From NCBI GenBank assembly GCA_963739455.1, contig CAVUAK010000001.1:2368001-2432000 (forward strand): a stretch of DNA of 64,000 nt. Direction: 5' to 3'. A program made the position numbers and the translations under genes. The notes below the pieces were generated by a model. That model worked only from the letters and a program-made list of their open reading frames with translations, searched no databases and was not told where the DNA came from. Below are positions 35,212 to 50,603 of this stretch, one piece after another. Each line of letters starts with the position of its first letter. Positions within the stretch are counted from its first letter, which is position 1. The DNA is from an uncultured Gemmatimonadales bacterium. GTDB lineage: Bacteria; Gemmatimonadota; Gemmatimonadetes; Gemmatimonadales; GWC2-71-9.

Positions 35212-36376
35212 AGATCCCCCTTTCTACAACGTGCGCAGCATGCGGGCGCGGCCGGTGTCGACGGCGCTGACGGCGCTCGGCATCGCGCTCGTGGTGGCGG
35301 TGTTCGTCGCGATGCTCGCGCTGGCGAACGGCTTTGCGTCGGCACTGGTGCGGACCGGGTCGCCGGACAACGTGCTCGTGCTCCGGAAGGGCGCCGACAG
35401 CGAGATGTCGAGCAGCATCGCGCGCGAGGCGTCGAGCATCATCAGCGTCGATACCGCAGGTGGCGCGTGGGCGCCGACGGTCGCCCGCTCGTGAGTCCCG
35501 AGACGTACGTGGTGATCCCGCTCGGGCGCATCGAGGATACGTCGGGGATGGCCAACGTCGTGCTGCGCGGCGTCGATCGGACAGGCGTTCGAAGGTGCGC
35601 ACCAACATCAAGGTGACGAAGGGCCGGTTGCCGGCCAGCGGGCAGAGCGAGCTCTGCCTCGGCAAGAAGCTGGTTGGTCGTTTCGCCAACACGGCGGTGG
35701 GGCAGTCGATGACGTTCGCAGCGCAACCGTGGAACGTGGTCTGTCACTTCACGGCGGGCGGGTCGGCGTTCGAGTCGGAGATGTGGGGCGAGAACGAGCA
35801 GTTCCAGGGCGTCTTCCGCGGGAGAGTCTTCCAGTCGGTGACGTTCCGGCTGAACGATCCGGGTGCGTTCGAGGAAGTGAAGCGCAGTCTCGAGGCCGAC
35901 CAGCGGTTCACGGTGGATGTGCACCGGGAGTCGGAGTTCTACGCGCGACCAGTCGCAGCTGCTGGGGAACATCCTCCGGTTCCTGGCGATCATGATCACG
36001 ACGATCATGGCGGTGGGCGCGGTGTTCGGCGCGGTGAACACGATGTATGCGGCGGTCTCGTCGCGCACGCCGGAGATCGCGGTGCTGCTGACGCTCGGGT
36101 TCAAGCCGAGGAGTGTGCTGGCGAGTTTCCTGATCGAGTCGGCGGTGATCGCGTTCATCGGGGGAGTGATCGGGTGCCTGATGGCGCTGCCGATCAACGG
36201 GGTGGTGACGAGTACGACCAACTGGGCGACGTTCAGCGAGATCGCGTTCGCGTTCCGGGTCACGCCGCAGCTGCTGCTGACGGGGCTGGTGTTCGCGGTG
36301 GTGATGGGGATGCTGGGCGGGATTCTTCCCGGCTCGGAGGGCGAGCAAGGTACCGGTGGTGCAGGCGCTGAGGTAG
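35208..36376 (+). CDS. ABC permease (FtsX/MacB type), multiple indels
   Basis: YNVRSM..RPVST, NTMYAAVSSRT.EIAVLLTLGF, FAFRVTP; ends VVQALR-TAG. Confidence 0.8.
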
Positions 36377-36415
36377 GACGTGAGGACGTGAGGACGTGAA
36401 GACGTGAAGACGTGA
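36376..36415 (+). repeat. (G/A)GACGTGA x5 octamer repeat
   Basis: Read directly; the same unit occurs x3 at ~56155-56178. Confidence 0.9.
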
Positions 36416-36462
36416 GGTAGACTGCGACCCTTTTCACTTGAGGATGATTGAGTCCGGGTGGG

Positions 36463-36509
36463 ATGGGGCGTTTGGCCTATGTGGGTGCGGTGGTCGGGCT
36501 GGGTATGTT
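36463..36509 (+). promoter_or_regulatory. Palindromic box plus -10 (copy 1), upstream of the cassette array
   Basis: ATGGGGCGTTTGGCCTAT-N23-TATGTT. Confidence 0.65.
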
Positions 36510-36575
36510 CGGTGAGTGGGAGAGTCTCGCAACTCATGAGTTAGTTAGGCCGCTGCCGACCAATATGGGGAAGCT

Positions 36576-37118
36576 ATGGCGTACTTCGATGGGCTAACGG
36601 CAAGCATCACGCAGACGGGGCTGGACGGTCGCACCTACTACGCTCCGGTCGGGCGGTATGGATCTCTGCACTTGGTGCCTGATGAGGTTGCGCTCACGGC
36701 GCTAAGGCGCGACTGGCGCCGGTTCTTCATCGCGTCCTTCGCTGTCATGATGGGCGTGATCATGTTCGCAGGGCCGGCGCGGCTCATGGGAGCTGGCTGG
36801 GCTTTTCTGCTGTTAGCGCCGCTCATCGCCGGTCTGATTGCCACGGGATACGGCTTGGTCCTCGCGCGACGGTTGCCGCGCGCTGCGATCACGCACGATC
36901 AACTTGTCCGCGTGAGCCCGGCCCAGGCACAGGCGAGGGTGCGTACGGCGATGGGTCCGAAGACATGGCTGCTGGTCGTTGGGTGTTCAGTCCTCATGAG
37001 CGTGGTTAGCGTAGCAGTCGCAATCATCACTCCAACACCAACGCTATGGTTCGGCGCGGTCTTCTTCGTGGCCTGCACAGTGAGCTTCTTGTGGCGACAC
37101 AAGACACCCAGGCCCTGA
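36576..37118 (+). CDS. Cassette 1: hypothetical 4-TM membrane protein
   Basis: ORF between GTTAGGC (36544) and attC1. Confidence 0.75.
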   Translation: MAYFDGLTASITQTGLDGRTYYAPVGRYGSLHLVPDEVALTALRRDWRRFFIASFAVMMGVIMFAGPARLMGAGWAFLLLAPLIAGLIATGYGLVLARRLPRAAITHDQLVRVSPAQAQARVRTAMGPKTWLLVVGCSVLMSVVSVAVAIITPTPTLWFGAVFFVACTVSFLWRHKTPRP

Positions 37119-37129
37119 GCGCGGCGGCG

Positions 37130-37259
37130 GCCTAACACGCACATGGTGCCGCCGGCCGCGGGTGTTGATGCGGCGCCAGCGCCGCCCGTGCTACCAGCTC
37201 TTTCAGCCGCGTCGCTGGCGCCGCGACCGCGGCCGCGGCACATGTGCAACGCGCTATGC
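37130..37259 (+). other. attC site 1 (130 bp; R' reads GCTATGC instead of GTTATGC)
   Basis: GCCTAAC..gcacatgGtgccgCcggccgcgg...ccgcggccgcggcacatgtgc..GCTATGC; long hairpin with extrahelical bases. Confidence 0.88.
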
Positions 37260-37275
37260 CGCACGTGGAGGGAAT

Positions 37276-37551
37276 ATGGCACGCTTCCTAATTAGGTGGC
37301 GCCCCCTGCTGTGGGTCGCTGGTCTTGTGGTTGTGGCAGTGTTGATCTCGTTCACGTGGGAACGTCAGACTTCGTATGACGACGGAGGCCTTGGGACGGC
37401 GAGCTTCCTCGTGACCACAGTGTCCGCTATACCGGGCCAAGCCCTCGGCCTCGGGTATGGAGCTAGCCTGTTCGTCGCGGTGCTGGGGCTTGTTATAACC
37501 GATGTCGTTTCGCGACGGGCGCTTGTCGCTCGAGGCCGGATCGACAAGTGA
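37276..37551 (+). CDS. Cassette 2: small membrane protein
   Basis: GGAGGG RBS; 91 aa, hydrophobic. Confidence 0.7.
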   Translation: MARFLIRWRPLLWVAGLVVVAVLISFTWERQTSYDDGGLGTASFLVTTVSAIPGQALGLGYGASLFVAVLGLVITDVVSRRALVARGRIDK

Positions 37552-37584
37552 GGCGAGGTGGCTCAACGTTTTGATGCGCGCGCG

Positions 37585-37715
37585 GCATAACGAGCACATG
37601 GTGGCTGTCGGCCGCGGGTGTCTATGCGGCACGAGCGCGGCCTGTGCTTCAAGCCTGTTAAGCCGCCGCGCTCGCGCCGCCACCGCGGCCGCAGCACATG
37701 CGCAAAGCGTTAGAC
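37585..37715 (+). other. attC site 2 (131 bp, intact)
   Basis: GCATAAC...GTTAGAC; arms homologous to attC1; unpaired G, G, T on the left arm. Confidence 0.92.
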
Positions 37716-37720
37716 CGCCA

Positions 37721-38404
37721 ATGACAACAAGAGGCCGCACGACGATGCTTGACGATGGATCGGAAGCCCAACCCCTCTACCTGCAGGCGACCCTTCGAGG
37801 GCCGACCGCCAGGCTAACAGCGACGCTAAGCTTCCTGAACGGGTTCGGTGAACGGTCGCCACCCACCGAGCCACCAGCATTGCTCCTGCAAAGCCTCATT
37901 GTCGCGGGGCCACGCACACCCGAAGGTGCAATCGTCGAGGCTGTGACGTTGCCGTGGCACCACATACTCGGCCTAATAGCTGCCAACGAGGAGACGATCC
38001 ACCAGATCGACTGGCGCAAGTGGGAGGAGATCATCGCCGGCGCCTACAAACAGGAAGGATACGACGTCGTTATCACCGCTCGGTCCAACGACGGCGGGCG
38101 CGACATTATCGCTACCAAGGTCGACGTTGGCTCTATTCGCATCCTGGATCAAGTGAAGGCGTATTCGCCGGGGCACCTTGTGAATGCAGATGAGGTGAGG
38201 GCGATGATGGGCGTCCTGAGCCTTGAGGGGAACGTGTCCAAGGGCTTTGTCACCACCACGTCAGATTTTGCCCCTGGGATCATGAAGGACCCTCGACTGG
38301 CGGGGTTCATGCCGCATCGCCTCGAGCTTCGCAATCGCTCCAAGCTGCTGCAGTGGCTAGCTGATCTGGCGCTGCGTGGCGCCTCGGAGCCAAAGGCGGT
38401 CTAA
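37721..38404 (+). CDS. Cassette 3: Mrr-family restriction endonuclease (start 37721 or 37745)
   Basis: WEEIIA..Y..EGY, DGGRDIIA, DQVKAY, EVR, TTSDF. Stop TAA lies inside GTCTAAC. Confidence 0.85.
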   Translation: MTTRGRTTMLDDGSEAQPLYLQATLRGPTARLTATLSFLNGFGERSPPTEPPALLLQSLIVAGPRTPEGAIVEAVTLPWHHILGLIAANEETIHQIDWRKWEEIIAGAYKQEGYDVVITARSNDGGRDIIATKVDVGSIRILDQVKAYSPGHLVNADEVRAMMGVLSLEGNVSKGFVTTTSDFAPGIMKDPRLAGFMPHRLELRNRSKLLQWLADLALRGASEPKAV

Positions 38405-38417
38405 CAACGCGTTAGCT
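38399..38417 (+). other. Truncated 19-bp attC (R''-5 nt-R')
   Basis: GTCTAAC-AACGC-GTTAGCT. Confidence 0.8.
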
Positions 38418-38439
38418 TGCACTAGCTAGGGAGAAATCC

Positions 38440-38661
38440 ATGCCGACGTCTGCCAACCCCTACCTGCTGCAGATCCTCATGAGTCTGTATTTCGCCGGAA
38501 CCGCCGCGCGGTGGCTGATTACGCCCACCAACCACCCTGACGCCTCGACATTGCGGTACGTCGGCGTCTGGGCGCAGCTCATCATCGCAGTGGCTCTCCT
38601 CATCCGTTTCAGTCGCAAGGCCAAGGCTGCTGCGAATGGCTCCGCTGTAAGCGCAAGCTGA
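38440..38661 (+). CDS. Cassette 4: 73-aa two-TM protein
   Basis: GGGAG RBS; stop inside AGCTGAC, followed by the attC-like remnant aagcacatgtgcc. Confidence 0.68.
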   Translation: MPTSANPYLLQILMSLYFAGTAARWLITPTNHPDASTLRYVGVWAQLIIAVALLIRFSRKAKAAANGSAVSAS

Positions 38662-38708
38662 CAAGCACATGTGCCACGTGCCATGTGGCCGCACAACCGG
38701 AGGCCATC

Positions 38709-39068
38709 ATGGTCGCTGACATCTTTGACAATGGTTCGGGTCCTGAGGCGCTCCTGGAGGCCATCGCCCGACAAGCTTCGCGGGCTTCCCGAATGCAACT
38801 CACCATCCTCCTGGCGCTCGCCACATTGGGGTCCGTCGGGGCCGCGCTGACTGCTGGTCACGGGTTGGCGCTCGCCATCGCGATCAGTGCGTTGTGCGCC
38901 TCGACGGCGGTGCTGGCGCTATGGGAGCTTTGGCGCCGATCGACAGTGCGCCCGACGCGCATGCGAGCCGCCCTTCAGACGGGTCTCGCGACACTCGGCG
39001 TGGTCCTCTGGTTTCTCAGTGGCATGGCGCTGCTGCTCGTGCTACTCGGCGATTCGTGGAAGCTATAG
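38709..39068 (+). CDS. Hypothetical membrane protein
   Basis: GGAGG RBS; three hydrophobic segments. Confidence 0.65.
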   Translation: MVADIFDNGSGPEALLEAIARQASRASRMQLTILLALATLGSVGAALTAGHGLALAIAISALCASTAVLALWELWRRSTVRPTRMRAALQTGLATLGVVLWFLSGMALLLVLLGDSWKL

Positions 39069-39126
39069 GCGACAGGCCGCGCCGCCCGGTGCGTGCGCCC
39101 AAGGTGAGTGATGCTATGGGGACGCC

Positions 39127-39585
39127 ATGAAGCCCTGGCTTGCCGGTCTCGCCATAGTCGCCCTTGGCGGAGCTGCCACACCTGCATCAAGTCAGGTGGC
39201 GAACCCCGTTTTTGTTGTGACCGCCACGGGGGCCATTCCAGCCGCCTTGCCGGCTCTCAATGCATGGCTCACACAGCTCGATCTGGCTGAATACGGCGCT
39301 AGCTGGGATTCCGCGTCGGCGGCTTTTCAGGCGGCGACGGAGAGGGCCGAGTGGGAGAAGGCGGTCCTGCAAGCGCGGGGCGCGTTCGAGCCGTTCGGTG
39401 CCCGGCAGTTGATCACGCTTGCCTATAGCCGTGATTCGACGCGCAAGGCTGACGGTGAGACAGTCCTCGCTCAGTATCGCACTGCGGTGGAAGGCCAGCG
39501 GACGGTCCTCGAAACAGTCACAGTAGCGAAGGGGCCCGATGGACGCTGGCGCGGTGCTGGCTACTTTGTGCGCCTCCAGCCGTAG
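39127..39585 (+). CDS. DUF4019-domain secreted protein
   Basis: Signal peptide; WL..LD...Y.ASW..AS..FQ, LETVT, DGRWR..GYFV. Confidence 0.78.
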   Translation: MKPWLAGLAIVALGGAATPASSQVANPVFVVTATGAIPAALPALNAWLTQLDLAEYGASWDSASAAFQAATERAEWEKAVLQARGAFEPFGARQLITLAYSRDSTRKADGETVLAQYRTAVEGQRTVLETVTVAKGPDGRWRGAGYFVRLQP

Positions 39586-39604
39586 TCCTGACAGGGGATC
39601 CATT

Positions 39605-40228
39605 GTGAGGCGGATTGCGGTTCCCCAGCTGTTACCCCTTGTCACGGCCATAGTGCTACATGCGACGGCATTGGTGGCGATTGCGTTCCTATGGCACGCA
39701 GCGCCTCAGCCGGTTGCGCTCGGCGCTCGCAGGGCACCCTCCGATCCTGTCCGCTTCGTTCTCCCTGTACTGATTCCTATCGCCGATGCCCGCCAGAAGG
39801 CGCGCGAACGAAAGCCCGAGCGGAGCACGAGCGAGCCTCAGCCTTCCGACGCGGGGACGCCTGCCTCGCCAAACGCGGAACCCATGCCCAGCGAAGGCGG
39901 CACCGCTTCCGTCGCAGAGGGTTCTACGGGACCTGGGTGGGCATATCGGCCTGCGCAGCCCTCGTCGCGCTTCACTGAAGCAACCTCGCGCTCGGTGATG
40001 TCGGATCTCCCGGCGCGCCCAAACTGTGCCGAGGAGCACCTCCAGCAATTTCACTGCGCTCAGCTTCAGTCCCGCTGGTCCCTTGATTCCAGTATAAGCG
40101 TCAACTTGAACTGCGCCCGCGTCACCCTGTCCCGCCAGCGATACGCCGAGTGTGTGCGGCACCCAATGGTCGCCGTCGATACCTCCCCGATGGACCGCTC
40201 CTCCGGGGAGAGCATCGCACCGGAATAG
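39605..40228 (+). CDS. Hypothetical protein (N-terminal TM, Pro/Ser-rich linker, Cys-containing C-terminus)
   Basis: TAIVLH TM anchor resembling TonB-type anchors; no family recognised. Confidence 0.5.
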   Translation: MRRIAVPQLLPLVTAIVLHATALVAIAFLWHAAPQPVALGARRAPSDPVRFVLPVLIPIADARQKARERKPERSTSEPQPSDAGTPASPNAEPMPSEGGTASVAEGSTGPGWAYRPAQPSSRFTEATSRSVMSDLPARPNCAEEHLQQFHCAQLQSRWSLDSSISVNLNCARVTLSRQRYAECVRHPMVAVDTSPMDRSSGESIAPE

Positions 40229-40265
40229 CATGGTGTGTCGACCCGGCACGGCGGGCAAGCAAGTT

Positions 40266-40311
40266 ATGGGTCGTTTGGCCTATGGGGCGCGATCGTGAGG
40301 CTGGGTATCGT
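40266..40311 (+). promoter_or_regulatory. Palindromic box plus -10 (copy 2)
   Basis: ATGGGTCGTTTGGCCTAT-N22-TATCGT. Confidence 0.68.
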
Positions 40312-40364
40312 TCCCCGGACAGTCGTTCCGCTGCCCTTGCGCTGTTGACGACCCCGGAGGCTGG

Positions 40365-40865
40365 ATGAGTGAGCCTTCCTCGAAGCTCGAAGGCCTTGGC
40401 GGATGGCTGCTGTTCGTCGCCATTGGCCTCTTTGCGAGGCCAGTGGGGATCCTCATGAACGAGGCGCCTGCACTCGTCAAGATCGTAACTGACGGTACGT
40501 GGCATGCGCGCACAACGCCTGGAAGCCCGGACTATCATCCACTCTGGCGCTACACGCTGGGCCAGGAGATTGTCGGCAACGTTGGTGTTCTCCTTGTGGA
40601 GCTGTGGCTCATTTTCTTGTTCTACCGGCGCTCACCACGGTTCCCCGCCTGGTATATCGCCTGGGCGCTGTTCATGCCGGTGTTCATCCTGACCGACTCC
40701 TGGCTCTTTACCAGGATCCTGCCAGCCGAGCCATTGTTTGATCCTGTAACCCTCAGGAAGTTCGCCGGCACGGCAATTGGAGCCCTCATATGGGTTCCCT
40801 ACATGCTTGTGTCGAAGCGGGTCAAGGCAACGTTTGTTCCTTCCCCGCGCGGGCGTTCAGGCTAG
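40365..40865 (+). CDS. DUF2569-family membrane protein
   Basis: GLGGWL N-terminus and WVPYMLVSKRVKATF C-terminus. Confidence 0.85.
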   Translation: MSEPSSKLEGLGGWLLFVAIGLFARPVGILMNEAPALVKIVTDGTWHARTTPGSPDYHPLWRYTLGQEIVGNVGVLLVELWLIFLFYRRSPRFPAWYIAWALFMPVFILTDSWLFTRILPAEPLFDPVTLRKFAGTAIGALIWVPYMLVSKRVKATFVPSPRGRSG

Positions 40866-40895
40866 CTGACATTACAAGAGGGCACGTACTCCGCG

Positions 40896-41192
40896 TCAAG
40901 CAACTCTGGCAGTCCTGGTGGTGAAGGTCACCTTGACCCCGGCATGCCCGAGCATGGTTACCAGGCTATCGATGCTGAAGCGGTCGATCTTGCCTCGGCG
41001 AAGATCGCTGACGCGCGGTTGCGAGACGCCTAGCAGCTTGGCGGCCTGGACCTGGGTCAGGCCCCGCGCCTCCAGCGCCTTGCTCAGCGCAATCATGAGT
41101 TCGGCGCGGACCCGGAGATGCTCGGCTTCCTCAGGCTCGAAGCCCAGGTCAGCAAAGACGTTGCCGGTCGACCGGCGGAGTTTAGTAACCAT
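40896..41192 (-). CDS. XRE/HigA-type antitoxin (HTH_37-like)
   Basis: GGAGG RBS; STGNVFADLG, LTQ..AAKLLGVSQPRVSDL.RGKIDRFSID.L. Confidence 0.88.
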   Translation of the reverse strand: MVTKLRRSTGNVFADLGFEPEEAEHLRVRAELMIALSKALEARGLTQVQAAKLLGVSQPRVSDLRRGKIDRFSIDSLVTMLGHAGVKVTFTTRTARVA

Positions 41193-41486
41193 GCTTTCCT
41201 CCCTTAGCGCCGTCGCCAGGCGCCGCTGCAGAATTTCCGCGAGGCGCTTCCGCGCGACCTCGATATCGACCATCCGGGACTTGCGCGTCCGCTTCTCAAA
41301 GGCGTGGAGGACATAGATGCCCTCCTCGAATTTGGCGATGTAGAAGACCCGGTGCTCGGCTCCAGTGTGCAGTCGGATCTCCAGGACGCCCGTGCCCACA
41401 CTCGTCATGGGCTTCCAGTCATCAGGCATAAGGGCCCGGAGATCATCGAGGGCGGCGCCGACCCACAGCAGCGGCTTATCAGGCAT
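41193..41486 (-). pseudogene. RelE/Gp49 (HigB-like) toxin with apparent internal deletion, reading in frame into the antitoxin
   Basis: KPLLWVG..LDDLRA, DWKPM..VG.GV.EIR, RVFYIAKF...YVLHAFEK; no stop before the antitoxin ATG. Confidence 0.7.
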
Positions 41487-41488
41487 TG

Positions 41489-41520
41489 GCAAATATATAA
41501 GTAGGTATATATTGCTGCAA
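41489..41520 (-). promoter_or_regulatory. TA promoter with overlapping palindromic operator; leaderless start
   Basis: TTGCAG-N17-TATATT-5 nt-ATG; ATATATA-N6-TATATAT inverted repeat. Confidence 0.75.
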
Positions 41521-41600
41521 GAGTTGCCGAGTACGCACAGCCAGGCGCCTGGGTTAGGTCGTGATGGCCAGCTGACAGTCCCGGAAAGGACGCGTAAACA

Positions 41601-43436
41601 CTGCGAGCTTCGTTCTGGAACCTTGTTCTCGGGCTTGTTGCAGCCTCACCAGTCCACGCGCAGCGGCCACTCAACCTTGGTTTCGAGCAACCCAGCAGTG
41701 CCGAGCCCGCCCGCCCGTGGGGATGGAGCCTCGGCTGGTCGGCATTCGGCGGCGGTTCTTCCGCTACGATTTCCCTCGACAGCGTTGTAAGGCACGGCGG
41801 GCGACGGAGCCTTCGGTTGTCGCAAGGCGACTCTGCGCCCTCGACACAGCCGCAGACGATCATGCTGCAGATCCCTGCCGATTCGTTCCGGGGGCGGGAA
41901 GTTGCGCTGACAGGGTGGATGCGCGCGGACCGTCTACGCGGCAAGGCGTGGCTCGCCCTCGAGGCGTGGAAGAACCAGGACTACGCTGCAGCTGATACCG
42001 CATTCGTTGCAAGCGACGGCCCTCCGCAGTGGCACCGATACCAACTCCATATCACCGTTCCAAAAGACCCGACGATTCACTCGATCGTCATCAGCGCAGT
42101 GCTGGAGGGTTCCGGCACGGTGTGGTTCGATGACCTTCAGTTGAGCGTGGACGGGACGCGTCTCGTCGCCCATCCGCCCGTCGCCGCTCCGCCCACCAAG
42201 GTGGATCTCGCCTGGCTGGCCCAGCATTCTGTCCCACTCATGCCGATCAGCGACTCGATCACTGCCGCGTTCAGACGGTTCTCCGAGATCGTGGGCCCCG
42301 CCCGCGTCGTCGGCCTCGGCGAGTCGACACACGGAACCGGGGAGTTCTTCCAGCTCAAGGCGCGCTTGCTCGAGTATCTCGTACGGGTCGAGGGATTCCG
42401 GGTGTTCGCGATCGAGGCGAACCAGCTCGCCACGGAGCGGGTGAACCGGTACGTGGAGGGCGGGGCAGGAACGGCGCCTGACGTGATGAAGGTGATGTTC
42501 CGGGTGTGGAACACGGAGGAGATGGAGCAGCTGGTGGAGTGGATCAGGAGCTTCAACACCGAGCATCCCGACAAGCGGGTACGCTTCGTGGGCTACGACA
42601 TGCAGGACCAGCGGACGCCGGCCGACACGCTGCGGGCTTTCCTGACGCGGGTGGAGCCGTCGTTCGTCGCCCGTTTCGATTCGCTTGCCGGTGAGTACCA
42701 GGCCCAGAAGTCGTATGCGACGCCGCAGATCGCGGACAGTACCAGGGCGAGGTGGTTCGACCAGGCCGCGACACTCTGGGACAGCGTGAGCGCGCGACGG
42801 ACGGGATGGCTCGACCGGGCCGCGAGCGCAGCGGACACAGTCGCCGTGGAATGGGCGGTGCAATCGGCCAACCTGTTTCGCCAGGCGGCGAAGTTCAACG
42901 TCACACTCAACTCACCAGAGCGGGACAGCCTGATGGCGGCCAACCTCGACTGGATGCTGCGGACGTTGGCGCCGGGCGAGCGGGCGGTGGTGTGGGCTCA
43001 TGACGTGCATGTGAGCCGAGGAGGCGACGCGGAGCTCAGCTTCAACGGCGGGGCGCAGATGGGGGCGTATCTCGCGCGGCTGTATGGCACCGGGTACCGG
43101 GCGTTCAGCTTCCTGACCTACGATGGGGCCTATACCGCGACACGGAGTTTCACCAACCACGAGATGGTGTCGGTGGCAGCCACGCCCGCGCCGTCGGGCA
43201 CCCTCGAGGCGGCGCTGAATGCGCTGCCGAGGCCGGCGTCAAGTATCGGATGGCTGGCAGACCTTCGCACGGCGCGGACGGACCCGGGTGGCCAATGGCT
43301 GAACAGGCCACGACCTATTCGCCACGTCGGCTACGCTGCGTACGACTATGGCTTCGAGATCAGTGTCGTGGTTCCGCTCGAGTTCGATGGGGTCTTCTTC
43401 GTGGACCACACCACGCCGTCGCGGCTCCTGCCGTAG
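41601..43436 (+). CDS. Secreted erythromycin-esterase-family protein with N-terminal beta-sandwich
   Basis: Frame open from CTG at 41601 (AAAGGA RBS, signal ..VHA-Q). GLGESTHGTGEF, AIEA, GYDMQ, RD..MA.N, WAHD.HV, FDG.FF. Confidence 0.85.
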   Translation: MRASFWNLVLGLVAASPVHAQRPLNLGFEQPSSAEPARPWGWSLGWSAFGGGSSATISLDSVVRHGGRRSLRLSQGDSAPSTQPQTIMLQIPADSFRGREVALTGWMRADRLRGKAWLALEAWKNQDYAAADTAFVASDGPPQWHRYQLHITVPKDPTIHSIVISAVLEGSGTVWFDDLQLSVDGTRLVAHPPVAAPPTKVDLAWLAQHSVPLMPISDSITAAFRRFSEIVGPARVVGLGESTHGTGEFFQLKARLLEYLVRVEGFRVFAIEANQLATERVNRYVEGGAGTAPDVMKVMFRVWNTEEMEQLVEWIRSFNTEHPDKRVRFVGYDMQDQRTPADTLRAFLTRVEPSFVARFDSLAGEYQAQKSYATPQIADSTRARWFDQAATLWDSVSARRTGWLDRAASAADTVAVEWAVQSANLFRQAAKFNVTLNSPERDSLMAANLDWMLRTLAPGERAVVWAHDVHVSRGGDAELSFNGGAQMGAYLARLYGTGYRAFSFLTYDGAYTATRSFTNHEMVSVAATPAPSGTLEAALNALPRPASSIGWLADLRTARTDPGGQWLNRPRPIRHVGYAAYDYGFEISVVVPLEFDGVFFVDHTTPSRLLP

Positions 43437-43618
43437 CGCGCATCAGCTGCTGGCCAGATTGTCCCTGCGGGACACTCTGTCTGTGGCGATTGGGACCAGC
43501 GGGCGCTCGCCCACCGCGAATGTGCGGCGGCATACGACGCTGGCGTCCGTTTTCGCAGCATCCACACCACGGCATGACGCGTGCATTGAATGGGGGTCCC
43601 GCGCCCGGAGCGCCCTCC

Positions 43619-45267
43619 ATGCCACAGGTTCGCGCCTCGCTTCGAAATCTCCCGCCGGTCGCTCGCACCGTCGCGCGCTGGACCGGCGAACTGGCGTCAC
43701 AGCTGCTTGCGATCGCGACCTTCGTCGCTGGAGCCATTCTCCTCCTGGCGGGTGCCACGCCACCGGTCGACGAGCGCATCGCGTGGCTGGACCGGGTTCT
43801 TCCGGCTGGCACCATCGACATCTCCCATTTCCTGGGGAGCCTGATCGGCACGGCGTTGTTGCTGGTGGCGCGCGGCCTTCAACGCCGGCTCGACGGGGCC
43901 TGGGTTGCCGCCTGCGGACTGCTGGCTGCCGCGAGCATCACGTCGGTGCTGCACGGCGAGCTCGGTGCGGCTGCGCTGGCCGCGCTGGTCCTCGCGCTGC
44001 TCGGCTCCAGCCGGCGTCACTTCCATCGTCGCTCGTCCCTCCTGCACGCCTCGTTCAGCCGGGGCTGGATCGTTGCCATTGCCGGGGTCGTCCTGGCGTC
44101 CACATGGCTGGGCTTCTTTGCCTATCGGCACGTGGAGTACGACAGCGATCTCTGGTGGCAGATCGCGCGGGACGCGGACGCGCCGAGATTCCTGCGGGCC
44201 ACCGTCGGCGTAGTGGTGATGCTGTTCATGGTGGCGTGCTGGCGCCTGGTGGGGCCCGCTCGTCGCCGGCCCCAGGTTTCCGCCCCTGATGACCTGGCGA
44301 CGGTGCGCCGCATCGTGGCCAATGCCACCCGACCAGATGCCAACCTGGCCTTCCTCGGCGACAAGTCATTCTTCTTCAACGCCGAGCGGACCGCCTTCGT
44401 GATGTATGCCATCCGCGGGCGTACCTGGGTCGTACTGGGCGACCCGGTCGGTCCGCGTGATGCCTGGCCGGCGCTACTGCACCGGTTCTGCAACGAAGTG
44501 GATCGGCACGACGGATGGCCGGTGTTCTATCGACTGACGCCGGACGGACTGCCGGCGTATCTCGACCTCGGGCTGGCGGTGCTGAAGATGGGGGAAGAAG
44601 CCTGCGTGGACCTGACGACATTCTCGCTGGCCGGAGGTGAGCGGGCCGGACTGCGCTACATCGTCAACCGTCTCAGCAAGCGGCAGGCGCGATTCGAGCT
44701 GCGTGCGCCTGGAGAAGCCCACGACCTGCTGCCCCGGCTGAGGGAGATCAGTGACGAGTGGCTGGAGGAACGCGACGCCGGCGAGAAGAGTTTCTCCATG
44801 GGTTCCTTTGATCCCGCGTACGTCAGCAACCTGCCGCTGGGGCTGGTATGGGAGGGCGATACGCTGATTGCGTTCGCGACTGTCTGGATCGCGCGCGCCA
44901 GCCGGACCATGACGGTGGACCTGATGCGGCATACGGTGGGAGCCCCGCGCGGCACGATGGAGTTCCTGTTCGTGAAGCTGATGGAAGCGGGCCAGCGGGA
45001 CGGCTTCGATCGTTTCTCCCTCGGCATGGTGCCATTGTCCGGCCTCGCGGCCAGGCCGTTCGCGGAGCGATGGCACCGCGTGGGACGCCTCGTGTACCGG
45101 CTGGGCGAACGGTTCTACAATTTTCGCGGCCTCAGGGAATTCAAGGACCGGTTTCACCCCGAATGGCAGCCGCGATACATCGCAGTACCGAGACGGGTAG
45201 TGATGCCCCTCGTGATCAATGACCTCACGGCGCTGATCGGCGCGGGTCCAAAGCGGGTGGAGGCAAC

Positions 45268-45271
<4 letters not shown>
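43619..45271 (+). CDS. mprF: MprF-like aminoacyl-phosphatidylglycerol synthase, N-terminally shortened
   Basis: SHFLGSLIG, APRFLRA, GDKSFFF, LGDPVG, KMGEEA, EKSFSMG.FD, DLMR, FYNFRGLREFK..F.P.W.PRY. Confidence 0.85.
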
Positions 45272-48009
<2,738 letters not shown>

Positions 48010-48014
48010 GCGCC

Positions 48015-48896
48015 TCAGGCCACCCGTGCCTGCACGTCGAGATACTCGCTGGCGACCGCGGTGGTGCCATCAGTGGCCAGGTTGTGCTGCTGGAAGAGCC
48101 GAGTGAGCTCGCTACGCAACTTGCGCGCGCCCAGGGCGTCCGTTGCCTTGATTGTCGCCACCGAGGGCCCGTAGCTGGTGGCAAACAGCTCGGCCACATC
48201 CGCTGGATCCAGGTCAAAGCGAAGCTCGATCATGCGCCGGGTGAAGGTGATGGCGGTGACGCCGTCGCCGAAGCGCTCGCGCACCGTGTCTTCCTTGCCC
48301 CATGCCAGGGAACTGGGAACGCCCTGAGGAGGAGGCACGATGGCGACGTGCGCGCGAAGCATCTCGCCCACGAATCCCTCGGGAGTCCAGTTCGCCATTG
48401 CGATTCGGCCACCGGGGCGCGTCACCCGCATCAGTTCGGCCGCAGCTCGGTCGGGCCGATAGGCGAACATCGCACCGAACATGGTGACGGTGTTGTCGAA
48501 CTGCCCGCTGGCGTAGGGGAGGGCCTCTGCGTCGCCCACGTCGAAGTCCACGATGCAGCCGGCGGCGCGGGCCTCGCGGCGGGCATCCTCGATGAGGTTG
48601 GGGGCGATGTCCACACCGGTGACGCGCGCGCCAGCGAGCGCGGCGGGGATGGCGAGGTTGCCGGTGCCGCAGGCGACGTCGAGCAGCGAGTCACCGGCAC
48701 GCAGCTTCAGTCGCGCAACGAACTCGGCGGCACCCGGGGCGAAGCTGCGCGCGATCGGGAGGAAGTCGCCACCAGTCCAGACAGCGATGGCGCGGGCGGT
48801 GAGGGGATCGAGCGACTTCGCGCGCACGTCACCCACCACGCCGAATTCGCCAGTGCAGGGAAAGCTGTCGGTGTTCATCGGTAGTTCCTCCGTCAT
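48015..48896 (-). CDS. Class I SAM-dependent methyltransferase (start 48896 or 48878)
   Basis: LDVACGTGN, GVDIA, GDAEALPY, FGAMFA, RPGGRI..ANWTPEG. Confidence 0.9.
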   Translation of the reverse strand: MTEELPMNTDSFPCTGEFGVVGDVRAKSLDPLTARAIAVWTGGDFLPIARSFAPGAAEFVARLKLRAGDSLLDVACGTGNLAIPAALAGARVTGVDIAPNLIEDARREARAAGCIVDFDVGDAEALPYASGQFDNTVTMFGAMFAYRPDRAAAELMRVTRPGGRIAMANWTPEGFVGEMLRAHVAIVPPPQGVPSSLAWGKEDTVRERFGDGVTAITFTRRMIELRFDLDPADVAELFATSYGPSVATIKATDALGARKLRSELTRLFQQHNLATDGTTAVASEYLDVQARVA

Positions 48897-48958
48897 CGGT
48901 TCCTGTCGCGTCGTGGTGACGCGCGAATCCAATGTGCGAAGGGAGCTACGGCGGGCCA

Positions 48959-48993
48959 ATGACTGATCGTCCCGACTTCCTGTGCGAGCGTCT
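48959..48993 (-). promoter_or_regulatory. Putative AraC operator B, upstream of the methyltransferase
   Basis: AGACG-N6-CAGGAAGT-N-GGGACG-N4-GTCAT. Confidence 0.7.
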
Positions 48994-49950
48994 TATGATC
49001 GAGCGGGGCGACGTGCCTCGCGCCAGCCGCCGGGGGCGAGCCCGGTGGCCTTCTTGAACGCCCGGCTGAATGCGGCCTCGGAGTCGTATCCCACTTCCGC
49101 GCCGATGGTCGCGACCTTGGCGCCACCCTGCGCCAGGAGATTGGCGGCCACCTGCATGCGCCACTGGGTGAGGTACTGCATGGGCGGCTGGCCCACGAGG
49201 TCGGTGAAGCGCCTGGCAAGATTGGAGCGGGACGACGCCGACTCCTGCGCCAGCTCGGCGAGGGTCCAGGGATGCGCAGGCCGGGCGTGGAGCAGCGTCA
49301 GTGCGCGGCTTACCACTTCGTCACGGAGGCCGGCGAGCCAGCCGGTCTGTTCCGGCGGCAGGTCGTCTATATACCGGCGCAGCACCTCGATGAACATGAG
49401 CTCGGCCATGCGGGTGAGTACGGTATCGGCGCCGGGCCGGCCGAGGCGGCTCTCCTCGATGACCTGTCGGGGGAAGGTGCCGAGCCAGGCGTTGGACATG
49501 CCGCGGATATGGATCTGGCGTGGCAGCGCCGCAGAGCAGGGGATTGAAGGGGCGGAGGTCGCAGCCGAGGAAGCCGCAGACAAAGGAGGCACCGCGGGGC
49601 CCGGCGTCGCCGAGCATGACGGTGTGGGGGTAGCGGTCGGCGGCGGAGCTGTGGACGTCAGGGCCGATGCGGACGCCCCGGCCACTCGACACAAAGTGCG
49701 CATCGCCATGGGAGAAGACGATCACGTCGCCGGGGGCAAGCTCCACCTGTTCCTCGCCGATGAGCCCGGCGTAGCAGCGGCCCTCGATGAGGATGTGGTA
49801 GGCGATAAGGTGCTCTGCCGCTGGAAGGATGCGGGGCGAGAGCTCGCGCGCCGGCAAGGACTCGACGCTCCATGGATCAACGGCCTCGACGGCGTAGAAG
49901 TAGGCCCCGTCGAGGCGTACGACGCGCAGCAGGTCGGAGAGCGGGTCCAT
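48993..49950 (-). CDS. AraC-family regulator with Cupin_6 domain (RclR-like; indel ~49535)
   Basis: MDPLSDLL..VRL.G, PWTLAELA..SRS..ARRF..LVG.PPMQYLT.WRM, VGYDSEAAFSRAFKK. Confidence 0.9.
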
Positions 49951-49998
49951 TCCAAAGCATAGCGCCGGGTGCGGCGGCGCGGGAGTTCGGGCACCGGC

Positions 49999-50033
49999 AG
50001 ACGGCGGAGCAGGAAGTGGGGACGCACGGTCAT
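49999..50033 (+). promoter_or_regulatory. Putative AraC operator A, upstream of the DinB-family gene
   Basis: Same 35-bp pattern as operator B; TACGTT at 50056. Confidence 0.7.
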
Positions 50034-50120
50034 GGTACAACGATGCAGCATGCCGTACGTTGCTTGCGTAAGCCAGGTGACCGGATGGTCGTGTCGTTCA
50101 ACGAAGAAGGGAGTCGAGCA

Positions 50121-50603
50121 ATGGGACGTCGTGCTGAAGAACTGGCCGCCCGGATCGAGGCGGGGGCGGCGCTGCTGGGAGCGTACGCAGCGGAGCTGTC
50201 TGATTCGGAGTGGAATACCCGGGTGCGGGACGGGCGCACGGTTGGCGTCATCGTGCACCATGTCGCCACCATGTACCCGATCGAGATCGACGTGACGCGC
50301 GCGATTGCGGGCGGCAACGCGGTAGAGGGTGTCACGTGGGAGGCAGTGGCCGACATCAATGCGAAGCATGCGGCGGAGTTCGCGACCGTGAGCAAGGCGA
50401 CGGCGCTGGAGCTGCTGCGACGGAACAGCTCGGATGCGGCGGCGGCGGTGCGGAAGTTCAGTGATGTGGAGCTCGACACGGCGGCGCCATTCTCGCTCAG
50501 TTTCGATGCCCCGATGACGGCGCAGTTCGTGATCGAGGACCATGCGCTGCGTCATGCGTGGCATCACCTGGCGCGGATCAAGTCGGCGCTGGGACGCCAA
50601 TGA
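50121..50603 (+). CDS. DinB-family protein
   Basis: AAGGGAG RBS; DGRTVGVIVHH, EDHALRHAWHH His motifs. Confidence 0.78.
   Translation: MGRRAEELAARIEAGAALLGAYAAELSDSEWNTRVRDGRTVGVIVHHVATMYPIEIDVTRAIAGGNAVEGVTWEAVADINAKHAAEFATVSKATALELLRRNSSDAAAAVRKFSDVELDTAAPFSLSFDAPMTAQFVIEDHALRHAWHHLARIKSALGRQ

Follow-up and report, generated by a model that had tools for sequence, protein, structure and literature searches.

Integron cassettes are defined by RYYYAAC...GTTRRRY hairpins, the attC sites, and cassette arrays without an integrase gene (intI) are known as CALINs (attC-site clusters that have no integron-integrase). Here, we describe such an array in a 64,000-nucleotide stretch of DNA from an uncultured Gemmatimonadales bacterium, referred to as the window (positions 2368001 to 2432000 of contig C1 in a 3.6-Mb assembly of four contigs). 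In the survey by Cury et al. (2016, PMC4889954), CALINs outnumber complete integrons by 279 to 164, and their origin is left open among four proposed routes because attI, the insertion site, is rarely recognizable. The loss of intI with attC remnants has been described for Treponema phagedenis (PMC3607928; PMC4889954), and CALINs are found at conserved loci in Xanthomonas, with no attI assigned to them in the available part of that description.

The array in the window starts with a 90-bp head in which a palindrome of 18 bp is followed by a -10-like hexamer and then by an attI-like site. It is a true CALIN and, judged by its sequence, a satellite integron head. We consider it probable that this array, which has no adjacent integrase, starts with a likely complete head that was filled serially by the integrase of the genus and that it is now, by prediction, frozen and decaying. 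The CALIN itself and the collapse of its attC sites are ordinary; what is new is a head with an attI-like site at integrase-free loci. Throughout, G000 denotes the genome under study, other G codes denote compared genomes (among them 11 relatives from the same genus), and L codes denote individual loci or contigs; positions without a contig are those of the window. The head and the first four cassettes comprise the following features.

36463..36480 (no strand), palindrome ATGGGGCGTTTGGCCTAT, 18 bp; predicted operator of a PAS-like LuxR-type regulator
36504..36509 (+), -10-like hexamer TATGTT; distance from the palindrome, 23 nt; presumed promoter of the cassettes, Pc
36528..36550 (+), attI-like site CGCAACTCATGAGTTAG/TTAGGC (slash, presumed crossover); CGCA-N4-ATG-N5-GTT
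36544..37136 (+), cassette 1; open reading frame (ORF) 36576-37118 for a 180-aa hydrophobic protein; no Pfam family
37130..37259 (+), attC1, 130 nt; core GTT changed to GCT; predicted inactive
37253..37591 (+), cassette 2; ORF 37276-37551, 91 aa; no family
37585..37715 (+), attC2, 131 nt; core intact
37709..38405 (+), cassette 3; ORF from 37721 or 37745 to 38404; Mrr-type restriction endonuclease domain
38399..38417 (+), site 3; attC collapsed to 19 nt
38411..38662 (+), cassette 4; ORF 38440-38661, 73 aa; no family
38656..38686 (+), site 4; attC collapsed to 31 nt through the repeated GCACATG; mutations in both cores (GAC, GCC)

The head before cassette 1, like the cassettes farther downstream, was missing from a first-pass annotation of this DNA made from the sequence alone. 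Three arrays in G000 begin with CGCA-N4-ATG-N4-AG/TTAGGC, namely, those behind the main attI (head A), a second head (head B), and the window head. When GTT sites were scored with a model of the intI-linked attI sites of G006, G008, and G010 only, these heads ranked 1, 2, and 17 of 61,984, the window head being the 17th (2, 3, and 39 with two training sites). Like an attI, the window site combines the GTT with the cognate left box and spacing and has no hairpin, and the match extends over 16 nt. An A precedes the GTT and a hairpin is lacking in all 11 heads (z from -1.8 to +1.6), and a C precedes it in 23 of 23 attC sites; the window head itself has a hairpin z of +0.2, no upstream TAAC, and no left arm within 220 nt. 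We infer that the crossover takes place between G36544 and T36545.

Twenty-five palindromes in G000 reach at least 19 bits (unrounded scores), and only three of them have an attI-like GTT 30 to 200 nt away; these are the three heads, at 13.2, 17.6, and 23.5 bits, compared with -1.6 or less at the other 22 palindromes, in a test whose model included the main attI in its training set. A TAnnnT is the first or only one 23 to 28 nt after the palindrome in all eight short heads and lies 52 to 53 nt after it in three long heads, and genome-wide, 9 of 25 palindromes have a TAnnnT in the 23- to 28-nt interval, compared with 2 to 5 in other intervals.

Scored with a model built exclusively from the sequences that directly follow intI in relatives, the window palindrome reaches 22.4 bits, and with the relatives-based model, 26 sites in G000 reach at least 19 bits, compared with 0 and 2.4 in two simulated genomes. 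The palindrome stands just after the intI stop in G000, G006, G008, and both G010 copies and upstream of head B and the window head. The palindrome is genus limited: exact copies number 26 in G000, 4 to 19 in 8 of the 11 relatives, 0 to 1 in the remaining three, and 0 to 2 in 69 others, and the sites in G000 are mostly unrelated to integrons. A cognate regulator was sought among the genes beside palindromes, 73 of 137 called genes being scanned. G000:C3:426372-426971 encodes a 199-aa protein with a LuxR-type helix-turn-helix (HTH) domain (PF00196) and has a palindrome 80 nt upstream; in eight of nine orthologs, the palindrome lies 76 to 81 nt upstream. The protein is present at full length in exactly those eight relatives that have 4 to 19 palindromes, and no full-length copy was found in the three relatives with 0 to 1 or in the 69 other genomes. 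Its structural model (pLDDT 76, pTM 0.51) has its best fold matches in VqmA (E 2.6e-7, TM 0.40) and EL222. This combination of a LuxR HTH and a PAS-like fold, an autoregulatory-type site, and a matching distribution leads us to predict that the palindrome is the operator of this PAS-like LuxR regulator. Palindromes also lie near genes for a WYL and a GntR protein and for sigma factors, and the palindrome at G000:C1:1460625, which precedes a sigma-70-family gene, is adjacent to two TTATCCAC repeats, which we take to be DnaA-box-like.

Two other identities for the palindrome found little support. It is absent from the upstream regions (within 300 nt) of 30 of 30 lexA and 28 of 28 recA genes, and it was therefore rejected as a LexA box; a CRP site is unlikely, as the single CRP homolog has a canonical RETVSR helix and there are 8 canonical TGTGA-N6-TCACA sites, compared with 1 for the reversed control. 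The lexA and recA regions share an element of their own, the direct repeat TTCG-N7-TTCG, which lies upstream of all 30 lexA genes (L093, L096-L124) and all 28 recA genes (L094, L125-L151), the G000 regions being C2:224500-224600 and C2:416450-416520; it is likely the SOS box of this order-level group. Before intI, one exact copy of this repeat occurs in G003 and none in G002, G006, G008, or G010.

A chromosomal integron with the window attC family is found on the same contig. The main array, at C1:2520350-2554583, holds 21 full and 3 damaged copies of this family, 115 to 150 kb away. When up to 14 candidates were scored in each genome, near-full matches (E < 1e-20) occurred in 5 of the 11 genus relatives and in none of 49 other genomes from outside the genus; the family is genus restricted in the sample searched and shared with the G000 chromosomal integron, the kind of integron that had been described earlier as lineage specific. 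An intI elsewhere in the genome, for which the first-pass annotation had proposed a search, was found as a single, broken gene. This sole intI found in G000 (C1:2555865-2555037) is transcribed toward the array, lacks about 40 N-terminal codons, abuts the stop of another gene, and carries both an in-frame TAG and a 2-nt deletion; the truncation is structural, and the frameshift may stem from an assembly error. With attC sites lost and the only intI found broken, the earlier proposal that the array is being fixed in place stands. Intact, co-oriented intI genes are present in G002, G006, G008, and G010, and together with G000, these genomes show the inverted-integrase layout, in which intI is co-oriented with attI or the array. 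Named IntI relatives at 59 to 61% include, among the matches listed, many Gemmatimonadota records. The platform in G003, G006, and G008 adjoins genes that sit at about 927 kb of C1 in G000, where no integron occurs.

Some attC loci in this genus have a head without an integrase beside it. Nine attC loci lack an adjacent intact intI, and heads occur at five of them (G000 head B, the window, G003:C10, G009:C4, and G010:C1). Head B, 31 kb downstream of A, carries a 98.8% copy of the first cassette of A, which fits an IntI serving two heads. At G010:C1, a near copy of the intI-linked head of the same genome retains about 20 nt of intI, and at G009:C4, two 176-nt head copies, 89% alike and 2 kb apart, are followed by different first cassettes; the G003:C10 head has a palindrome with two changes. 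An exact-pattern scan of metagenome contigs, carried out once, gave two matches. In contig L317, a B-like head precedes a different cassette, and, as read from the sequence, no intI lies within 2 kb upstream; L318, in which GTTACGA follows and not a cassette core, is doubtful as a head. No match to the head pattern was found in viral contigs. Different first cassettes after a head are thus seen at other heads only (e.g., G009:C4 and L317).

Several further observations concern these arrays. Both G009 heads and their cassettes lie inside a segment (L063:6659-11022) bounded by a 44-bp direct repeat resembling a tRNA 3' end, so that, to judge by this sequence, the heads look as though they ride an island. 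The 19 kb between arrays A and B (C1:2523880-2542860, L303) contain a decayed copy of the G009 first cassette (82%) and the ArsR-AHSA1 pair (89%) that interrupts intI in G003, an older cassette graveyard. A main-array cassette without a clear sense-strand gene, common to G006, has its own palindrome (C1:2551260 and L057:11556) and is possibly a promoter cassette. In G003:C12 (L061:12278-14712), the attC sites of the distal cassettes are shorter and belong to other families. After intI in G174 (L257), a family-level attI, TGCAAGTGAAGTAATA/GTT, is identical to the G009 heads at 13 of 16 positions, so that the attI motif is older than the palindrome.

Within the window array, the first-pass annotation had recognized four single-ORF units, each bracketed by core heptamers, and all eight heptamers are where it placed them: GTTAGGC 36544 with GCCTAAC 37130, GCTATGC 37253 with GCATAAC 37585, GTTAGAC 37709 with GTCTAAC 38399, and GTTAGCT 38411 with AGCTGAC 38656. 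The complementarity of the cassette ends continues beyond the 7-nt cores, at 14, 12, 13, and 11 of 15 nt for cassettes 1 to 4, and perfect 10-nt GTTRRRY inverted pairs enclose 11 units genome-wide, 8 of which are integron cassettes, with window cassettes 1 and 3 among them. The protein of cassette 1 has one relative at 90% identity and unnamed Atlas clusters at 0.94. The cassette 3 domain matches PF04471 (E 5e-17), with weak PADLOC matches only and one homolog in 200 family genomes, and its product is likely anti-phage. None of cassettes 1 to 4 was found as a mobile cassette elsewhere among the 11 genus relatives.

The two full-length sites bear out the earlier description of homologous hairpins with extrahelical bases. 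They are 79% alike, and the bottom strand of each forms a long hairpin (z -4.85 for attC1 and -5.29 for attC2, with 0 of 200 shuffles as good), with single unpaired bases in the stems and an unpaired central spacer; the R boxes are paired in main-array copies and one attC1 fold and unpaired in the attC2 minimum-energy fold. A family profile built from 23 full-length copies, including attC1 and attC2 themselves, scores them at 119 and 135 bits, within the 116 to 146 bits of the 21 main-array copies; Rfam gave no matches for these sites. The GCT core noted in attC1 is real and unique among the 23 copies. Changes at family-invariant columns number 2 in attC1 and 1 in attC2, inside the range of 0 to 5 in main-array copies, and the full-length window sites are therefore not globally more degraded. 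We predict from its intact core that attC2 is the sole window site still recombinable. This family has 8 nt between the right-arm ATG box and the GTT (e.g., at 37585-37715), compared with 5 in attI, giving an unpaired spacer of 2 against 5, which may matter for recognition by other integrases.

Sites 3 and 4 are collapsed, and two main-array sites are internally shortened in the same manner. The 19-nt length reported earlier for site 3 is correct; a 19-bp attC site is known from blaGES-1. Its join fits a deletion between the CAA copies of the two arms, a mechanism that we propose from the sequence. At site 4, the GAC core was correctly described; its reduction to a left arm only was not, since the 31-nt collapse holds both ends. 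By alignment to the G008 attC and the next cassette, it retains R'', one GCACATG copy, and a decayed R' (GCCATGT; GTTATGT in G008). Decay is likewise present, without the strict grading that had been proposed, as attC1 has lost its core while attC2 has kept it. The reported absence of a tyrosine recombinase from the window holds, the four PF00589 loci of G000 all lying outside it, and so does the assignment as a CALIN: there are two full attC sites, with no intI within 4 to 10 kb and the nearest about 150 kb off. No intI or recognizable stub lies between the permease stop and the window head, and the array is not a complete integron.

The array does not end at 38675, where the first-pass annotation closed it. 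The gene at 38709 and a higBA-like pair are intact cassettes in sister genomes, and the features around and beyond the first four cassettes are as follows.

35917..36376 (+), 3' end of an FtsX-type ABC permease gene (PF02687); left flank of the insertion
36377..36417 (+), 8-nt tandem repeat (GGACGTGA-type), directly after the permease stop
38680..39085 (+), cassette 5; ORF 38709-39068; has lost its 3' attC; right end approximate
39127..40228 (+), DUF4019 gene plus a 200- to 230-aa ORF, inside the array span
40266..40283 (no strand), second palindrome; the next 35 nt are homologous to the head promoter (p 0.0005 versus shuffles)
40365..40865 (+), DUF2569 gene, followed by an attC remnant at about 40864-40901; perhaps an old cassette
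40895..41532 (-), higBA-like toxin-antitoxin cassette; genes 40896-41492, opposite to the array; Gp49 and HTH_37
47045..47062 (no strand), third palindrome; lacks an attI-like site and precedes an ordinary ATG
50121..50600 (+), DinB-family gene; right flank of the insertion

The cassette 5 gene has a 66% identical counterpart in G008 that forms a full attC-flanked cassette, and the higBA-like pair (71% and 91% amino acid identity) forms one in G006; the window retains decayed ends of each of these cassettes, with both ends of the higBA-like one decayed (GTCAAGC and GCCGAGT), and its toxin half is about 19 codons shorter than the G006 counterpart. For three other genes in this span, cassette status is unsupported: the DUF4019 gene and the 39539 ORF have one 28% homolog in five relatives, and the DUF2569 gene has none in the same number. 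The 40266 palindrome was also rejected as a second head; the GTT 60 nt on fits the spacing but is unlike attI, ranking 54,969 of 61,984.

The permease, whose orthologs are 83 to 85% identical in G001, G003, G004, and G009, is followed directly by the DinB-family gene in G001, G003, and G009 (G004 has other DNA there), which identifies 36385-50100 of the window as a 13.7-kb insertion. An empty site after the permease had been suggested as something to look for in relatives; in the nine checked there is none, and neither a head nor an attC follows the permease, the whole head being absent. The GGACGTGA-type repeat occurs in many copies in G000 and sister genomes and represents a genome-wide family that is not array specific. 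Farther into the insertion (41817-45993), an erythromycin-esterase-family gene with an N-terminal extension is followed by MprF-like lysyltransferase and VirJ/AcvB genes as a pair.

How could a head outlive its integrase? A co-oriented intI would place operator, promoter, and attI all downstream of its own stop codon, and because intI points toward the array, operator, Pc, and attI could survive the loss of intI or be copied separately. Deletion or leaving behind of intI would then spare a working head, which IntI from another locus would keep filling. In the window, new cassettes would enter at G36544 through IntI acting in trans, with older ones pushed to the right, where they would lose their attC by short-repeat deletion in the hairpin arms and become fixed, cotranscribed genes. 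The VqmA-like PAS-LuxR protein would bind the palindrome about 44 nt upstream of the presumed transcription start and switch on the proximal cassettes. With the core of attC1 mutated, only attC2 could still recombine, releasing cassettes 1 and 2 together; since intI is broken, the array is predicted to be frozen, barring an integrase supplied by incoming or unassembled DNA. Excision of a head-bearing unit by attI x attI recombination, of the kind described in PMC12901181, would fit the tandem G009 heads and does not obviously account for the window head.

A number of observations weigh against the window head being such a satellite. The attI model rests on two to four sites, and the window head is the weakest of the three in G000. 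Its palindrome-attI interval is not significantly similar to those of A, G006, and G008 (p 0.056 to 0.55), residual homology with the main intI-attI interval being nonsignificant (p 0.056), and the one nominal match in nine comparisons is to copy a of G009 (p 0.01; copy b, p 0.26). Its promoter part most resembles the attI-less promoters at 40266 (p 0.0005) and 47045 (p 0.033), no intI stub or insertion repeat was seen upstream, and no relative carries the head at the same locus either without cassettes or with different ones. Four of the nine attC loci without an adjacent intact intI are headless (G007:C12, G007:C13, G008:C34, and G009:C6). The intI-linked head of G002 has no palindrome, nor does any of 25 family-level intI loci with at least 150 nt available downstream; at 15 bits, 0 of 80 named loci have one. 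The fold match to VqmA is weak overall (TM 0.40, pTM 0.51), and the co-occurrence of regulator and palindrome was found among kin, which are not independent and may reflect a single event. Finally, the G000 assembly is 83.7% complete and has indel errors (by a crude count, 13 high-scoring segment pair breaks per 10,745 aligned residues), so that an intact intI may be missing from it.

The promoter resemblance, the absence of an intI remnant, and the 26 palindromes mostly unrelated to integrons would all be expected had the cassettes landed at a chance GTT behind an ordinary palindrome promoter and been kept there by expression. The likeness to attI would then be convergent, the site having been chosen, or having drifted toward attI, because IntI prefers that sequence. 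Loot et al. (10.1101/2022.09.11.507474) report genomic insertion at GWT sites, termed attG, and propose that attI arose from such hotspots. However, attG as they describe it needs only GWT, whereas the window site matches attI over 16 nt and ranks 17th of the 61,984 GTT sites; it is not the bare GWT, unlike attI, of an attG or SALIN (a lone attC site with no integron-integrase). Moreover, an attI-like site is missing at 22 of 25 palindromes, intI loss left a directly descended head at G010:C1, and head copying is seen in G009. We regard this de novo origin as unlikely.

The first-pass annotation favored a detached piece of a chromosomal integron, taken here as a mid-array piece of the main integron moved by rearrangement and without an insertion site of its own. 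The attC family common to both arrays, the absence of the platform in G000 from the locus it occupies in G003, G006, and G008, and the inclusion of rearrangement among the routes listed by Cury et al. (PMC4889954) are in its favor. A mid-array break would, however, leave an attC arm or a cut cassette, whereas cassette 1 starts exactly at the GTT after an A, preceded by the attI-like site, with no hairpin and no upstream TAAC and with a palindrome at head-typical spacing. The window has no tRNA genes in its 64 kb and no transposase among the genes scanned for families. None of its cassettes is duplicated in the main array, and their being copies of main-array cassettes was rejected on this ground. 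The proposal is thus largely refuted and now very improbable. Still less credible is that the attI-like site remains from an attC of another family that decayed until its right arm was left. The CGCAG..ATG box is common to attC right arms and attI, and CGCA-N4-AWG-N5-GTT does end some other attC sites in the genus (CGCAGCAGAAG-N5-GTT in G003 and G008:C34, with GCCTAAC 83 nt upstream of the G003 site). Those two sites have a C before the GTT, like all attC, whereas the window site has an A, no left arm within 220 nt, and a z of +0.2; a leftover arm would also leave the palindrome and the -10 spacing unexplained. A satellite head filled by the integrase of the genus remains the explanation that we favor.

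A broader and more tentative possibility is that of a distributed integron, in which a portable 90- to 180-bp head has been copied to, or stayed behind at, several chromosomal or island sites, served by one integrase in trans and controlled by a VqmA-like sensor. If so, one integrase could stock several separate arrays, a VqmA-like small-molecule sensor rather than LexA or CRP would switch on every proximal cassette at once, and many CALINs of inverted-integrase lineages would be live satellite integrons with an unrecognized attI. Since attI is readable from relatives and a single genus shows the loss of intI leaving a head (G010), its duplication (G009), and its dispersal (G000), the choice between remnant and live satellite becomes testable. 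The palindrome would furthermore offer a candidate means, besides LexA and CRP, by which cassette expression could respond to a signal. We found no description of dispersed or second attI heads, of Gemmatimonadota integrons, or of a TTCG-N7-TTCG LexA motif in a literature thinly covered for subscription papers; supplements may list attI sites or Gemmatimonadota CALINs. The review PMC8876359, as searched, describes no LuxR-type control of cassettes, the word LuxR occurring 0 times.

In Vibrio cholerae, CRP activates the Pc of the chromosomal integron through a palindromic site that lies about 41 bp upstream of where cassette transcription begins (PMC8876359), whereas the palindrome here is TRGGNC-RWWY-GNCCYA with a different predicted factor. 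The PAS-like and LuxR-HTH architecture predicted for that factor is that of VqmA (PDB 7dwm, 6ugl, and 6ide), EL222, and the Streptomyces PimM family, in which PimM-type proteins recognize a palindrome of 16 bp located in the -35 region (PMC9774167); the regulator is 12 to 20% identical to these proteins and has another palindrome. In sites 3 and 4, we see no difference of principle from the fused cassettes blaGES-1/aacA4, aadA10, and aadA1-blaOXA-9, where partial attC loss fuses neighbors, with a 91-bp attC loss given for the blaGES-1 type (PMC8876359, PMC4670013).

With respect to the head, attG and SALIN insertions are similar in that cassettes lie outside an integron, use IntI in trans, and are expressed from a nearby promoter; their consensus, GWT, is unlike attI (10.1101/2022.09.11.507474), whereas the window site, a match to the cognate attI, received five or more cassettes serially. 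Delta-attI-type cassettes, in which attI x attI recombination excises and inserts units, offer a possible route for moving heads (compare the tandem G009 heads), but they are described from class 1 and 2 clinical integrons as truncated attI sites inside arrays, in contrast to the dispersed chromosomal heads here (PMC12901181). The Xanthomonas CALINs may, by analogy, parallel satellite heads. With CALINs as defined by Cury et al. (PMC4889954), the window array shares at least two attC sites, no nearby intI, a small size, cassettes of unknown function, and a replicon carrying intI elsewhere, and it differs in having an identifiable attI-like site, a predicted Pc, and an operator, with a head that recurs at several loci. 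Inverted integrons of the Treponema denticola type likewise have an intI whose transcription runs toward attI and the cassettes (Wu et al. 2013, PMC3607928; PMC4889954); but where the account of Wu et al. gives one attI per integron, this genus has up to three heads per genome, two of them without intI and each with a conserved palindrome.

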